Positions 3,171 through 60,495 of a stretch of 64,000 nucleotides of DNA are shown here, one piece after another (position 1 is the first letter of the stretch; the number at the start of each line of letters is the position of its first letter). The DNA comes from an uncultured bacterium (GTDB taxonomy: Bacteria > Hydrogenedentota > Hydrogenedentia > Hydrogenedentales > Hydrogenedentaceae), in assembly GCA_937124615.1 (NCBI GenBank), contig CAKZKR010000109.1:12338-76337 (forward strand). The letters run 5' to 3'. The translations under genes were made by a program, and so were the position numbers. The notes below the pieces were generated by a model. The model did no database searches. It was not told where the DNA came from and saw only the letters and a program-made list of their open reading frames with translations.

Positions 3171-3974
3171 ATGCAATGGTTGTATCAGGAATATTGGAAA
3201 AAGAAAAAAGATTCGAGAAGAATTCGCAAAGCGTTTTTTTTCTCGATACTTATACATATTATTATTTTTGTTCCTTTCTATTTTTACAAAATCAGAACTC
3301 CAGAACCAATACCATTAGTGTTCCAGGTTTCCTTGGAGAATCCGGTGCCGGATAAGCCGATAACACAGGAGCCTCCACCGGAACCTCCTAAGCCCGAACC
3401 TCCAAAACCGGAACCCCCCAAACCCGAACCTCCTAAGCCGGAACCACCGAAACCGGAACCCCCCAAGCCGGAACCTCCGAAACCCGAACCCCCGAAACCC
3501 AAACCGAAACCGAAGCCCGAAAAAAAAATACCTGAAGAAAAACCCAAAGAAAAACCCGAACCCCCAAAACCAAAACCCGAACCCAAAAAGGAACAGCCAC
3601 CTCCAAAGGAACAGAAACCAACCCCAAAGCAGGAAGTTCCCCCAGTGCCCTCTGCCCCTAAAGCACAGGTTGCAAATCCTTTGCCACCTGAACTAGAATG
3701 GTGGGCAAGACAAGTGCAAAGGAAGATAGAGTATACATGGGTTGTTCCAAGTGGGATAAAGATAGACAATGAGAATAATGTTGCAGAAGTATCTTTCTGG
3801 GTGAATAGAAATGGGGAACTTCTTGAGCAACCTGTAGTTACTAAGGAAGCCAGCGACCCGGAATTAGGAGAATCTGGAGTAAGAGCAATCCTTCTTGCCG
3901 CTCCTTTTCCTCGTTTTCCCGATGGGTTTAATAAAGATGAGCAACTTGTGGTTTATGCTTTTTCTTTAGAGTAG
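3171..3974 (+). CDS. TonB/TolA-family energy transducer (N-terminal TM anchor, Pro-rich spacer, TonB_C-like C-terminus)
   Basis: N-terminal hydrophobic helix (FFFSILIHIIIFVPFYFY), then (PEPPK)n repeats, then a C-terminal segment (NGELLEQPVVTKEASDPELGESGVRAILLAAPFPRFPDG) like a TonB C-terminal domain. Lies immediately upstream of tolB. Confidence 0.65.
   Translation: MQWLYQEYWKKKKDSRRIRKAFFFSILIHIIIFVPFYFYKIRTPEPIPLVFQVSLENPVPDKPITQEPPPEPPKPEPPKPEPPKPEPPKPEPPKPEPPKPEPPKPEPPKPKPKPKPEKKIPEEKPKEKPEPPKPKPEPKKEQPPPKEQKPTPKQEVPPVPSAPKAQVANPLPPELEWWARQVQRKIEYTWVVPSGIKIDNENNVAEVSFWVNRNGELLEQPVVTKEASDPELGESGVRAILLAAPFPRFPDGFNKDEQLVVYAFSLE
3358..3505. repeat. Tandem 15-nt repeat encoding (PEPPK)x~9 followed by (PK)n inside the tonB/tolA-like gene
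   Basis: Near-perfect 15-bp units ccgaaaccggaaccc / ccgaacctcctaagc read directly in the sequence. The antisense ORF 3284..3769 (G/S-rich) is a shadow of this repeat. Confidence 0.85.
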
Positions 3975-4070: not shown

Positions 4071-5408
4071 TTGAAAATGGTAAAGAAACAACTATGTATT
4101 ATTGTGTTTTTTTCTTTTTTAACATTTGGTTTAATATCAGAAGTTGTTGCTCAGGATGCCATTCGTATCCAGTCCGTAAGAGGAATTGATAAAAGGATTT
4201 TAATTGCGGTTCCTCCTTTCTGTCCTGATACTCCGGATTTGAGCGGTGTTGCGGTGGAGTTATCGGAGGTAATGGCTTATGACTTGGAGTTTTCGGGGCT
4301 ATTTATTTTGTTGCCACGGGAACGCTATCCTGTTGGATTTGTTACATTGGAAAAAGATGTTGCCAGCATTAATTTTGATGCATGGCGTACTACGAAGGCA
4401 GAGTTTTTGTTATATGGTCTTGTGAAAAGAGATGGTGGAAAATATGTCTGTCAGTTTCGCTTATTAGACCTTATTTCAAGTAATCAGGTCGTTGGAAAAG
4501 AAGTTCGTGTTGATGTATCAAATGCGCGTTTGGCATCGCATCGTTTTTCTGAAGAAGTAATTGCTTTTGTTGATGGAATTCCGGGTGTAGGGACAAGTCA
4601 GATTTGCTTTACTGGGATAGTCGGTAAGAATAAAGAATTGTTTATTGCAGATTATGATGGTGCGAATATAAAACAGATTACGGAACATGGCTCTATCTCA
4701 ATAAAACCGAAGGTCTCTCCGGATGGGATGAAAATTGCCTATCTATCATATAAAGACCGTTATTCCTTCTTGTATATTTTTGACCGTCTAACGGGAAAGG
4801 TTACTCCACTATCAAAAGAAGTGGGGCTGAATTCGGCTCCTTCATGGTTTCCTGAGGGGAATCGGCTGGCAATGACTTTGAGTAAAGACGCGAATATGGA
4901 GATTTATATACGAAATATTGATGGAAGCAATCCTATTCGCATTACGAAAAATAAGGATGCGGACACATCTCCCTGTATTTTAGCGGATGGTTCAAGAATA
5001 GCATTTGTAAGTGACAGGGGGGGCAACCCTCAAATTTATGTTATGGGTGTCGATGGGAGTGACCCGCGTCGTGTTTCTTATCAGGGAGGTAATTCATACG
5101 ACCCTGCAGGGTCTCCTGATGGAAAAATGATTGCCTATGTTGTAGAACAAAGAGGTGAAGGTTTTGAAATATATGTAATGGATGCGGATGGTTCTAATCC
5201 TCGAAGATTAACCAATTCTTATGGAAGTAACGAGTCTCCGACATGGTCACCGGATTCTCGACATGTAATGTTTTGTTCTACCCGAAATGGAAGATGGGAA
5301 TTATGGACGGTCAATGTAAAAACGGGAGAAGAACGAAGAGTCCCGAATTTGAGAATGGAATGTCAAGGACCTTCGTGGGGGCCCCGAATGCAAACGGAAA
5401 ACAAATAA
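4071..5408 (+). CDS. tolB: Tol-Pal system beta-propeller protein TolB
   Basis: Signal peptide, TolB N-terminal domain, then repeated WD40-like/PD40 blades (ISPDGxxIAY, SWSPDGxxLAF motifs). 445 aa, typical TolB length. Confidence 0.85.
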   Translation: MKMVKKQLCIIVFFSFLTFGLISEVVAQDAIRIQSVRGIDKRILIAVPPFCPDTPDLSGVAVELSEVMAYDLEFSGLFILLPRERYPVGFVTLEKDVASINFDAWRTTKAEFLLYGLVKRDGGKYVCQFRLLDLISSNQVVGKEVRVDVSNARLASHRFSEEVIAFVDGIPGVGTSQICFTGIVGKNKELFIADYDGANIKQITEHGSISIKPKVSPDGMKIAYLSYKDRYSFLYIFDRLTGKVTPLSKEVGLNSAPSWFPEGNRLAMTLSKDANMEIYIRNIDGSNPIRITKNKDADTSPCILADGSRIAFVSDRGGNPQIYVMGVDGSDPRRVSYQGGNSYDPAGSPDGKMIAYVVEQRGEGFEIYVMDADGSNPRRLTNSYGSNESPTWSPDSRHVMFCSTRNGRWELWTVNVKTGEERRVPNLRMECQGPSWGPRMQTENK

Positions 5409-57408: not shown

Positions 57409-58941
57409 ATGCTTAATCTGGGTTATGTATTGGAAGAAACTGCAAAGAACTACCCGAATGTAACAGCAGTTATTTTGGACCAGATAAAAATAAGTTATGA
57501 ACAGTTGAATAAATATTCCAATCGGGTAGCAAATATCTTAAAACAAAAAGGATTGAAAAGAGGAGATAAGGTTGCTATGATGATTCCCAATCTTCCTTAT
57601 TTCCCTATGATATATTATGGGATATTAAAGGCAGGAGGTGTCGTTGTCCCGGTAAATGTGTTGTATCAAAAAATGGAAATTGAACATTATATAAAAGATT
57701 CGGAATCAGTAGCATTTATTGTATATCATGGTTGTGCTGGAGAGGCCGTAAAAGCATATCAATCTGTGGATACTTGTAAACATCTTATTATTATCCCTCC
57801 AATGGATAACATGGGAGATTTGGAAGTTGGTGAGAATTTTAATAAGTTGATTATGGAATCGAGTGATGAATTTGATGTTGTGCAAACGATGCCTGATGAT
57901 ACCGCAGTAATACTGTATACATCAGGGACAACAGGGGCCCCAAAAGGAGCAGAGTTAACACATTTTAATATGTTTTTTAACTCTTACTATGCCTCTCATG
58001 AAATTGTTCGGGTAAAACCGGGACTTGTAGCACTTGTTGTGTTACCCTTGTTTCACTCGTTTGGTCAGACCTGTGTTATGAATGCGTGTATTATGAGAGG
58101 TGGAACTCTGTCTATGCTTCCACGATTTGAAACTCAGAAAGCCATGGAAGTTATAGCAAGAGACCGTATCAATGTTCTTGCCATGGTTCCAACAATGTAT
58201 GCGTTTATATTAAATGCCCCCAATTGGAAAGATTATGATTTTTCTTGTGTTACATTGGCTGTATCAGGTGGAGCTGCATTGCCCGCGGATATACATCAAA
58301 GATTTCAAGAGCGATATGGGATAACAATCTTGGAGGGATACGGTTTATCGGAAACAAGTCCGGTGGCTTCTTTTACTGTGTTAGGTGAAGAGGTTCGGGT
58401 GGGCTCTATTGGTAAACCTATATGGGGAGTGGATATGCGCATTATGAGAGACGATGGAACCTTCGCAGGACCGGATGAAATCGGAGAAATTGTGATTCGT
58501 GGTCATAATGTAATGAAGGGATATTATAAAAGGACAGAAGCAACTTTAGAAGTAATGGTAAATGATTGGTTTCATACAGGAGATATGGGACGAACAGATA
58601 AAGATGGATATTTTTATATTGTTGACCGCAAAAAAGAATTGATTATTCGTGGTGGTATGAACATATATCCACGGGAAATTGAAGAAGTTTTGTATACACA
58701 CCCCAAAGTTCTTGAAGCAGCTGTAGTTGGGATTCCTGATAAATTGAGGGGCGAAGAAGTTCGTGTTTATGTTTCTCCAAAGGAGGGAGAAGAAATCCAC
58801 CCTGAGGAAATTATGCAGTTCTTGCAGGAAAAAATTGCGAAGTTTAAATGGCCAAAAGATGTGGTTGTTTTGCCCCAATTACCCAAAGGCCCCACCGGGA
58901 AAATATTAAAACGCCAGTTACGAACCATGCCTATCGTTTGA
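57409..58941 (+). CDS. Long-chain-fatty-acid--CoA ligase (AMP-binding enzyme family)
   Basis: AMP-binding signature YTSGTTGAPKG and the downstream GYGLSET and GDMG...DGYFYIVDRKKELI motifs. Start is ATG 57409, with RBS aaggagac 7 nt upstream. The ORF-track start 57340 is less likely. Confidence 0.85.
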   Translation: MLNLGYVLEETAKNYPNVTAVILDQIKISYEQLNKYSNRVANILKQKGLKRGDKVAMMIPNLPYFPMIYYGILKAGGVVVPVNVLYQKMEIEHYIKDSESVAFIVYHGCAGEAVKAYQSVDTCKHLIIIPPMDNMGDLEVGENFNKLIMESSDEFDVVQTMPDDTAVILYTSGTTGAPKGAELTHFNMFFNSYYASHEIVRVKPGLVALVVLPLFHSFGQTCVMNACIMRGGTLSMLPRFETQKAMEVIARDRINVLAMVPTMYAFILNAPNWKDYDFSCVTLAVSGGAALPADIHQRFQERYGITILEGYGLSETSPVASFTVLGEEVRVGSIGKPIWGVDMRIMRDDGTFAGPDEIGEIVIRGHNVMKGYYKRTEATLEVMVNDWFHTGDMGRTDKDGYFYIVDRKKELIIRGGMNIYPREIEEVLYTHPKVLEAAVVGIPDKLRGEEVRVYVSPKEGEEIHPEEIMQFLQEKIAKFKWPKDVVVLPQLPKGPTGKILKRQLRTMPIV

Positions 58942-59240
58942 TTTTTCTAAAAAGTAATAATAATCCTCAGTATGGTTTCTGAATGGGTTTGTTTGTATCT
59001 GTTTATAAACCAATATAATTTTTTCTTATGAACTTTATAAGTTTTTATTATGAATAGTTTTATATCAAATAAAAGATATGGTAAAAATATTTCAAGAAAA
59101 ATACAGTGTTGTAAGTTATTGATATTTAGACACATAAAAAATGGAAATGTTTCACAATTAAATTAGTGAAAAAAATGAATATAACTAAAATAGTAATTTT
59201 ATAAAAGAATAAAAGTATTTAATGAAAAATAGAAATTATG

Positions 59241-59270
59241 TTGACAAAGGGTATCTATATGTAGTATAAA
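59241..59270 (+). promoter_or_regulatory. Consensus-like sigma-70 promoter (TTGACA-N18-TATAAA) for the micro-protein gene
   Basis: TTGACA at 59241-59246 and TATAAA at 59265-59270, about 85 nt upstream of ATG 59355. Confidence 0.5.
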
Positions 59271-59354
59271 TATTAACGGTATACCACAATATAAAAGTTT
59301 GGTATACCCTGTGTATATCACAACTTATGTAAACTAATAAAAAGGAGAATGGAA

Positions 59355-59450
59355 ATGGCTACAGCTAAAAAGGCCGCTGCAAAGAAGGCTCCTGCGAAGA
59401 AAGCCGCTGCAAAGAAGGCTCCTGCAAAGAAAGCAGGTTGCAAAAAGTAA
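59355..59450 (+). CDS. 31-aa lysine/alanine-rich basic micro-protein (AKKA/PAKK repeats; histone H1/HU-tail-like, candidate nucleoid-associated peptide)
   Basis: RBS aaaggaga 6 nt upstream. Translation is MATAKKAAAKKAPAKKAAAKKAPAKKAGCKK. It contains an internal 30-nt tandem duplication and is GC-rich relative to its surroundings. It is bracketed by a promoter and a strong terminator, and is not in the ORF track (<60 aa). Confidence 0.55.
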   Translation: MATAKKAAAKKAPAKKAAAKKAPAKKAGCKK

Positions 59451-59478
59451 AGTAGGATAAGATTTCTACTTTTTCACG

Positions 59479-59513
59479 CACAGGTCACATGAAAATGTGA
59501 CCTGTGTTTTTTT
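59479..59513 (+). terminator. Rho-independent terminator after the micro-protein gene
   Basis: CACAGGTCACA-tgaaaa-TGTGACCTGTG is a perfect 11-bp stem followed by T7. Confidence 0.9.
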
Positions 59514-59619
59514 AAGTTTATTTTTTTATTGTGTTTGGTATAAATTTGATAAATGGAAAAGTCATTTTGTAAAATTTGGACTATTTAAGATTATTATTAT
59601 ATAAACATAAGGTTTTTTT

Positions 59620-60495
59620 ATGAAACGGCATATAACATTTTTAACCCTTATTATTTTTTGTTTTGTAATTTGTTTTGGTCTTTTTTTCCTGCAAAAACAG
59701 GGTTTTGCTGAAGAGATAATAAAGGTCATGACTTTTAATCTCCGATACGGAACTGCCATGGACGGACCCAATCACTGGAATAAAAGGAAAGATATCCTTG
59801 TGGAAGTTATAAAAAATTATGACCCGGATATATTAGGGACTCAAGAGTGTCTTGATTTTCAGGCAAAGTATATCGAAGAACAAATATCTTCGTATTCTTT
59901 TATTGGGAGAGGGAGAGAAAAAGATGGTTCTAGTGAGCAGACATCTATATTTTACAAAAAGGATATGTGGGAGGCTTTAGAGACGCAATTTTTCTGGATT
60001 TCAGAAACACCGGAGGAGCCCGGTTCAAAATCATGGGATACTGTTTGTACTCGAATTGTTACCTGGGTGAAATTAAAACATAAACCTACAGGGAAGAAGA
60101 TTCTGTTTGTTAACACACATTTAGACCATAAGGGTGAAGTTGCTCGACAAAAAGGAGCGGAAATAATTTGTGAAAAGATTAAAAAGGATAATGAAAATCT
60201 TCCGGTTATAATCACAGGTGATTTTAATGCGGTTGGTGAAAAATCAGAGACATGGAAAATTTTTATGAATAATGGCTTGAATGATTCATGGATGAAATCA
60301 AATGAGAAAAAGGGACCTATAACAACATGGTGTGGATTTAAAGACCCTGATACCAATTCCGATTATCGGATTGATTGGATTTTATATCAAGGACCTTTTC
60401 AACCATTGAAATATGAAACAATTGTTTATAGTAAGGAAGGAAAATACCCCTCAGATCATTTCCCTGTTATAGTTTTTTTCAAGTGGGGTTTATAG
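59620..60495 (+). CDS. Secreted endonuclease/exonuclease/phosphatase (EEP) family protein
   Basis: Signal peptide. EEP motifs MTFNLRYG, LGTQE, NTHLDH, GDFN, SDHFPV. Confidence 0.8.
   Translation: MKRHITFLTLIIFCFVICFGLFFLQKQGFAEEIIKVMTFNLRYGTAMDGPNHWNKRKDILVEVIKNYDPDILGTQECLDFQAKYIEEQISSYSFIGRGREKDGSSEQTSIFYKKDMWEALETQFFWISETPEEPGSKSWDTVCTRIVTWVKLKHKPTGKKILFVNTHLDHKGEVARQKGAEIICEKIKKDNENLPVIITGDFNAVGEKSETWKIFMNNGLNDSWMKSNEKKGPITTWCGFKDPDTNSDYRIDWILYQGPFQPLKYETIVYSKEGKYPSDHFPVIVFFKWGL

Follow-up and report, generated by a model that had tools for sequence, protein, structure and literature searches.

The gene described here, a 31-codon open reading frame (ORF) lying in a 64-kb stretch of bacterial DNA (hereafter the window), is on our analysis best described as a new form, minimal and stand-alone, of the H1-like Lys/Ala/Pro polyanion binders known from bacteria. 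The explanation that we favor, with a probability of roughly 0.5, is that a monocistronic gene gives rise to a disordered polycation that would bind the AT-rich chromosome and compact or shield the nucleoid. The window was placed in Candidatus Hydrogenedens of the phylum Hydrogenedentota (once called NKB19); among named genomes, that of Ca. H. terephthalaticus is the closest. Bacterial Lys/Ala/Pro "H1-like" sequences have so far been investigated in the form of tails by which a folded domain, a granule, or a lipid droplet is anchored to DNA. A conserved gene that consists of the tail only, and that is under stronger constraint than its neighbors, suggests that the polycationic repeat itself is the functional unit.

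Organization of the micro-gene

The ORF was found in a listing of ORFs of at least 20 amino acids (aa) and by a reading of positions 58800-59900. It encodes MATAKKAAAKKAPAKKAAAKKAPAKKAGCKK and ends with a TAA stop codon. A first-pass annotation of the window had claimed an ORF, a ribosome-binding site, a promoter, a repeat, and a terminator within 59241-59513, and all five were found there. The elements of the unit and its immediate flanks are listed below.

59088..59240 (+), A/T-rich region 5′ of the −35 box, with 70-76% identity between lineages versus 56-63% farther upstream
59241..59270 (+), promoter-like TTGACA-N18-TATAAA (TTGACA at 59241-46, TATAAA at 59265-70), with both hexamers invariant in all relatives
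59278..59308 (+), inverted repeat GGTATACC..GGTATACC where the transcript is predicted to begin, the start being placed from the position of the −10 box
59341..59348 (+), Shine-Dalgarno sequence AAAGGAGA, with GGAG 7 nucleotides (nt) 5′ of ATG 59355, invariant in all lineages
59355..59450 (+), ORF of 31 codons plus the TAA stop codon
59373..59434 (+), 30-nt tandem duplication encoding KKAxA pentads (TRF: period 30, 2.1 copies, 96% matches)
59449..59472 (+), small hairpin (AAAGUAGGA..UUCUACUUU) right after the stop codon, present in the minimum-free-energy fold
59478..59513 (+), intrinsic terminator, with its stem at 59478-59507, a 4-nt loop, and a T7 run to 59513
59546..59575 (+), promoter-like TTGATA-N18-TAAAAT, a site of its own for the Exo_endo_phos gene that follows

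Two in-frame ATG codons are available for the start of translation. Reading from the first would yield a 33-aa ORF (59349-59450, plus strand; MEMATAKKAAAKKAPAKKAAAKKAPAKKAGCKK), and the GGAG at 59344-59347 stands 1 nt before this codon (59349) and 7 nt before the second one (59355). Since the first ATG is missing in three lineages (L016, L030, and L031) and the second alone is retained in them, the 31-aa reading is preferred. Thus, ATG 59355 is probably the start codon, and the upstream ATG 59349 would be left unused.

The internal tandem duplication of 30 nt claimed by the annotation was recovered by TRF, and a 15-nt (5-aa) sub-period underlies the 30-nt unit at 59373-59434. The 31-aa peptide carries 12 Lys and no Asp or Glu, giving a charge of +12. 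Its six KK pairs, at residues 5-6, 10-11, 15-16, 20-21, 25-26, and 30-31, are spaced by exactly five residues, and exact PAKKA motifs occur twice. No other Lys/Ala/Pro-rich stretch was found in the six frames of the 64-kb window except for a proline-rich TonB spacer. The latter belongs to a 267-aa protein at 3171-3974 (plus strand), in which a long (PEPPK)n / (KP)n spacer is combined with a TonB C-terminal domain (PF13103, E=3e-10), and it is the sole other strongly Lys/Pro-rich stretch in the window.

The claimed promoter, TTGACA-N18-TATAAA, occurs only once in the 64 kb versus 0.33 expected, and 28 of 100 shuffles contain at least one such site; the match alone is therefore not significant, and its support comes from position and from conservation. 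Its −10 box lacks the usual final T, and a consensus promoter scan omitted the site because the last base is A. Upstream of it, the A/T-rich region at 59088-59240 may contain an UP element or regulator sites. In L002, a gene caller placed a 33-aa ORF on the minus strand (4770-4871) within the A/T-rich region upstream of the micro-gene. The inverted repeat at 59278-59308 (plus strand) is made up of two self-complementary octamers GGTATACC with 15 nt between them. It folds with −11 to −16 kcal/mol in 8 lineages, and the pairing survives an indel and substitutions in the arms; it could be an mRNA-stabilizing 5′ stem-loop or an operator. The conserved 5′ untranslated region (UTR) also contains a minimal start-stop, ATG-TAA, at 59328-59333 (plus strand), which all lineages share apart from the L016/L030/L031 type, where AGGTAA is found.

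At the other end of the unit, the hairpin and T7 run that had been read as a terminator are present, and the stem was scanned as 13 pairs, of which one is G-T and 6 are G-C. The scan of the 800-nt region yielded three terminator-like sites versus 0.2 expected. The G+C-rich hairpin followed by a U run is that of a Rho-independent terminator, and the structure is preserved by compensatory change, with double changes at 4 pairs of the stem across lineages (RNAalifold). In L016, the sequence at the equivalent of 59449-59472 is different, and the hairpin after the stop codon is still formed. As for the gene that follows, the TTGATA and TAAAAT/TAATAT hexamers are kept inside a spacer that is otherwise 50-54% identical between lineages. 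Because the downstream Exo_endo_phos gene has this conserved promoter-like site of its own, the small gene is regarded as monocistronic, and the proposal of a free-standing gene with its own promoter and terminator was borne out.

Resemblance to known polycations and possible ligands

AlphaFold modeling gave no secondary structure (pLDDT 61), and the peptide is predicted to be disordered. A sequence search of the PDB returned no relative, only an artificial linker. When the peptide was compared with family models, Pfam HC2 (PF07382) scored 15.7 bits versus a gathering threshold of 40 (E=0.017, residues 3-30). The corresponding values for the NCBIfam models were 18-20 bits versus 80 for hist_H1_lk_Burk (NF038053), 14-15.5 bits versus 135 for histone_lik_HC2 (NF038052), and 20-22 bits versus 100 for Rv3852_fam (NF050153). 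The HC2, H1-like, and Rv3852 matches are low-complexity matches only, and since all curated thresholds were missed, the peptide cannot be filed in any of these families. Nor is it a eukaryotic linker histone H1, as the 31 aa contain no winged-helix globular domain and match no Pfam domain. That all database similarity is of low complexity and lies below every curated threshold counts against the favored explanation.

By its repeated pentads and high positive charge, the peptide falls into the PAKKA-motif polyanion-binding low-complexity class, which is a functional class and not one of homology. String matching revealed that residues 4-21 are 18 consecutive residues identical to residues 178-195 of Mycobacterium tuberculosis HBHA, AKKAAAKKAPAKKAAAKK. 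HBHA has been described as a surface antigen (PMC10224509). It is a 199-aa protein whose repeat tail follows a long N-terminal region, whereas the window organism belongs to an unrelated phylum and has 35% GC. The identity is most simply explained as convergence of a low-complexity repeat. With its two PAKKA motifs, the HBHA identity, and the sub-threshold matches, the likeness to H1, HupB, and Hc tails noted in the first-pass annotation holds at the level of composition and motif.

Several tails of this kind have been characterized. The PAKKA tails of Rhodococcus MLDS bind DNA in electrophoretic mobility shift assays (EMSA) (PMC5504291), and DNA binding has also been described for two disordered tails, that of AlgP with its KPAA repeats and the histone H1-like one of PhaF (PMC11894788). 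The window peptide shares composition, pentapeptide logic, and predicted disorder with the tails of Rhodococcus MLDS, Pseudomonas AlgP/PhaF, mycobacterial HupB/Hlp, and Chlamydia Hc2. Those proteins have 100 to >350 residues and combine the tail with a folded or targeting domain, whereas here the tail is the entire 31-aa protein. The H1-like proteins of kinetoplastids, dinoflagellates, and Toxoplasma are likewise stand-alone, Lys/Ala/Pro-rich, and devoid of a winged-helix domain, and those of kinetoplastids and Toxoplasma function on chromatin without a globular domain (PMC9769792). These proteins are eukaryotic, whereas the window peptide is bacterial. Eukaryotic H1-like proteins without a globular domain are also several times longer than the peptide and act on nucleosomal DNA. 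Protamines and polyamines are small polycations that condense DNA through charge neutralization. Here the parallel is one of functional analogy only, protamines being Arg-rich and eukaryotic and polyamines being metabolites, with no common sequence or ancestry.

From the parallels with PAKKA tails, AlgP/PhaF, HBHA, and stand-alone H1-like proteins, non-specific electrostatic binding of polyanions by a disordered +12 peptide is therefore the best-supported activity. The AT-rich chromosome is the most likely target, with RNA or ribosomes and polyphosphate as the main alternatives. In the explanation favored here, the gene would be transcribed from its own sigma-70-type promoter into an mRNA that probably carries a protective 5′ stem-loop, and translation from ATG 59355 would yield a 31-residue intrinsically disordered peptide. 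The AKKA/PAKKA pentads would then bind the AT-rich chromosome irrespective of sequence, at its phosphate backbone and minor groove, and the bound peptide would neutralize charge and help to compact or shield the nucleoid. Such a mode of action would resemble that of the C-terminal tail of linker histone H1 and of the bacterial PAKKA tails, without a folded or targeting domain. In this scheme, we infer that the message is translated, that the product is abundant, and that DNA is its main ligand.

A bolder reading, which we put forward only tentatively, as the less probable outcome, is that no smaller nucleoid-associated protein has yet been seen in bacteria and that the product, an isolated "H1 tail" of 31 residues, serves as a major encoded counter-ion of the chromosome. 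In that case, the gene would also be a present-day instance of the lysine-rich DNA binder without further domains that has been proposed as the bacterial precursor of linker-histone tails. A 31-mer can be synthesized chemically, which offers a route to testing whether the repeat binds or condenses DNA, RNA, or polyphosphate.

It is also conceivable, if unlikely, that RNA rather than DNA is bound, in which case the product would be a tiny ribosome-associated or RNA-chaperoning protein, of the size of bTHX or bS22, that neutralizes rRNA or mRNA phosphates. The size of 31 aa and the charge fit such a role, as do the extreme conservation and the signals of a strongly expressed gene presented below, and in Toxoplasma, ribosomal proteins are among the partners of the stand-alone H1-like protein (PMC9769792). 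However, the gene is not located near ribosomal genes, it is restricted to one clade, and its product is unlike the known mini ribosomal proteins in composition. The latter are Arg-, His-, or aromatic-rich and, to our knowledge, are never perfect low-complexity repeats.

We consider it quite unlikely that the ligand is a polyanion other than a nucleic acid, be it polyphosphate granules, as for AlgP, or sulfated or acidic polymers at the cell surface, as for the tail of HBHA. The 18 residues shared with HBHA lie in its heparin-binding tail, and AlgP, with its KPAA-repeat tail, localizes to polyphosphate granules (PMC11894788). Yet the peptide has no signal peptide, neither a transporter nor a polyphosphate gene adjoins its gene, and both HBHA and AlgP need a second, anchoring domain, which is missing here.

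Conservation of the reading frame in relatives

The exact peptide is encoded on 14 metagenome contigs. At the ten places shown of these 14, where the contig is long enough, the gene order is TauE (reverse), acyl-CoA synthetase, peptide, Exo_endo_phos, HAD hydrolase, and GATase. Since an identical peptide was the criterion by which these loci were selected, the restriction of their differences to synonymous sites was not counted as evidence. Species-representative genomes were scanned with the neighboring Exo_endo_phos protein (alignment A2), and loci were obtained independently of the peptide, four of them (L014, L015, L016, and L021) via the neighboring gene and two (L030 and L031) with a 21-nt stretch of the 5′ UTR as the anchor. 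A further locus, L011, was recovered through a mis-extended gene call. All of these loci, L011 included, carry an intact ORF of 30-32 codons. The products at these loci and at L011 are as follows.

L014, peptide identical to that of the window
L015, MATEKK...
L016 and L031, MAATKKAAAKKAPVKKAVVKKAPAKKAGCK
L030, MAATKKAAAKKAPAKKAAAKKAPAKKAGCK
L021, ...PAKKTAGKK, with the Cys lost
L011, ...PAKKKAGCKK, with an in-frame AAA (Lys) insertion

The Cys near the C terminus is thus not essential, because L021 lacks it. Both the frame and the amino acid pattern are kept in relatives found independently of the peptide, and replacements across relatives are of Ala to Val, Glu, or Thr. Conservation of the reading frame had been set beforehand as the test of the proposal, and among 11 distinct nucleotide alleles no broken frame was found. 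Six KK pentads are present in each (11/11), so that the variation in repeat number for which a check had been suggested was not seen. Every Lys position is retained, except for the final residue in the one-codon-shorter L016/L030/L031 type. Variable columns number 4, 5, and 13 at codon positions 1, 2, and 3, respectively. The summed pN/pS value is 0.16 in the proposed frame versus 0.9-1.3 in four other frames and 0.25 in the antisense frame that shares its third positions.

At the RNA level, RNAalifold analysis of nine distinct transcripts revealed compensatory double changes in the terminator stem only, and the structured-RNA test found no covarying base pairs across the conserved region outside the terminator. 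In L016, which has an intact frame, the predicted ORF-internal pairs are disrupted, and Rfam gave no match near or above the gathering score. A non-coding RNA whose structure would explain the GC-rich repeat had been named in advance as the opposing outcome, and no such structure was found. Because the frame is kept, pN/pS is low, compensatory changes are confined to the terminator, and the ORF pairs are broken, these comparisons indicated that the unit codes for a protein rather than for a structured RNA. Some function at the RNA level besides coding may exist, the synonymous sites and the 5′ UTR also being strongly conserved.

A mirror-image ORF of 41 codons, Phe/Ala-rich (MQPAFFAGAFFAAAFFAGAFFAAAFLAVAISILLFISLHKL), lies opposite the Lys/Ala ORF at 59318-59443 on the minus strand. 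That the functional product is this ORF, or a small RNA, rather than the Lys/Ala peptide appears very improbable. The unusual conservation of the 5′ UTR and of synonymous sites would suit either, and the whole transcript folds better than its shuffles (z = −5.6). Moreover, the antisense frame also shows a reduced pN/pS, and since third codon positions are shared, tests at synonymous sites cannot fully separate the two frames. However, the z value is carried by two terminal hairpins, and a small RNA was rejected on the lack of covariation in the ORF, together with the breaks in L016 and the lack of an Rfam family. The antisense ORF was rejected as well, since it would start with TTG, without a Shine-Dalgarno sequence, an ATG, or a conserved promoter. 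An ORF is automatically open opposite (GCN-AAR)n coding and would be a by-product, whereas the sense ORF has a perfect, invariant GGAG-7-ATG.

Hardly credible is a regulatory leader peptide, in which Lys/Ala-rich translation would control terminator read-through into the Exo_endo_phos-HAD-GATase genes: the ORF is short and rich in two amino acids, with a terminator within 27 nt and genes on the same strand downstream, but such an attenuator was rejected on the conserved promoter-like site that the downstream gene possesses, and, furthermore, no alternative antiterminator pairing is predicted or covaries, the Pfam domains encoded downstream are unrelated to Lys or Ala supply, and the peptide sequence is under purifying selection, which leader peptides usually lack outside their regulatory codons.

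Constraint and signals of expression

The constraint on the unit was assessed by segment identities between the window and four diverged lineages.

ORF, 96-98% identity
Promoter and 5′ UTR, 89-91% identity
3′ UTR and terminator, 78-83% identity
A/T-rich 150 nt upstream, 70-76% identity
Spacers on either side, 50-63% identity

These values indicated that the whole unit is evolving far more slowly than its flanks. In the small ORF, pS is 0.09-0.48 and pN is 0-0.12; in the neighboring gene, synonymous divergence is saturated (pS of 0.6-0.7), with a pN of 0.08-0.16. Codon choice in the ORF is also distinctive, AAG being used for 8 of the 12 Lys residues versus 26% in the window's genes (p=0.0035), and AAA-AAA pairs do not occur in it. 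Such a preference would be expected if the message is translated and slippage on poly(A) is selected against. Along with the expression signals and the slow evolution, the AAG choice suggests that expression may be high.

Distribution and database searches

Among the loci examined, all those with the gene belong to the low-GC Hydrogenedens clade. The gene is absent at L023, a locus with an orthologous neighbor (47% identity) and 57% GC, where no small basic ORF is present. A core chromatin component would not be expected to be missing from a more distant relative, and this absence counts against binding of the peptide to the nucleoid.

In a look-up of exact-sequence clusters, the peptide was missing from a collection of 15 billion proteins, which reveals a blind spot for micro-proteins. 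With the stop-to-stop translation of 51 aa as the query, the matches were the ortholog P0001 and two long, high-GC AKKA proteins only, and an artificial 41-aa query with three repeats gave no matches. A phmmer search of 1.84 billion representatives yielded 26 matches, all of which, except for the ortholog, are low-complexity proteins of 90-884 aa. Similar micro-genes may be widespread but invisible, since gene callers and protein collections drop products under ~40 aa.

A stand-alone Lys/Ala/Pro protein of ~60 aa (MATAKKAAAKKAPAKKSAAKK...) is encoded at 532-792 of L012, a JGI 3300082821 contig with 65% GC. Its ORF begins with the same ribosome-site and start context, AGGAGAATGGAAATGGC, as the window gene. 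This context was rejected as evidence of homology; the query had included the translated ribosome-binding site, which probably selected the match. Directly 3′ of this gene lies an ORF that, from its motif YRAKRDPRRTAEP, we take to encode a LigD-like phosphoesterase. Finally, L016 (CAZJTZ010000037.1) is labeled "uncultured Nitrospirales bacterium," yet its gene order is that of Hydrogenedens, its GC content is 35%, and it carries the micro-gene; this suggests that this metagenome-assembled genome contains a mis-binned contig or bears a wrong label.
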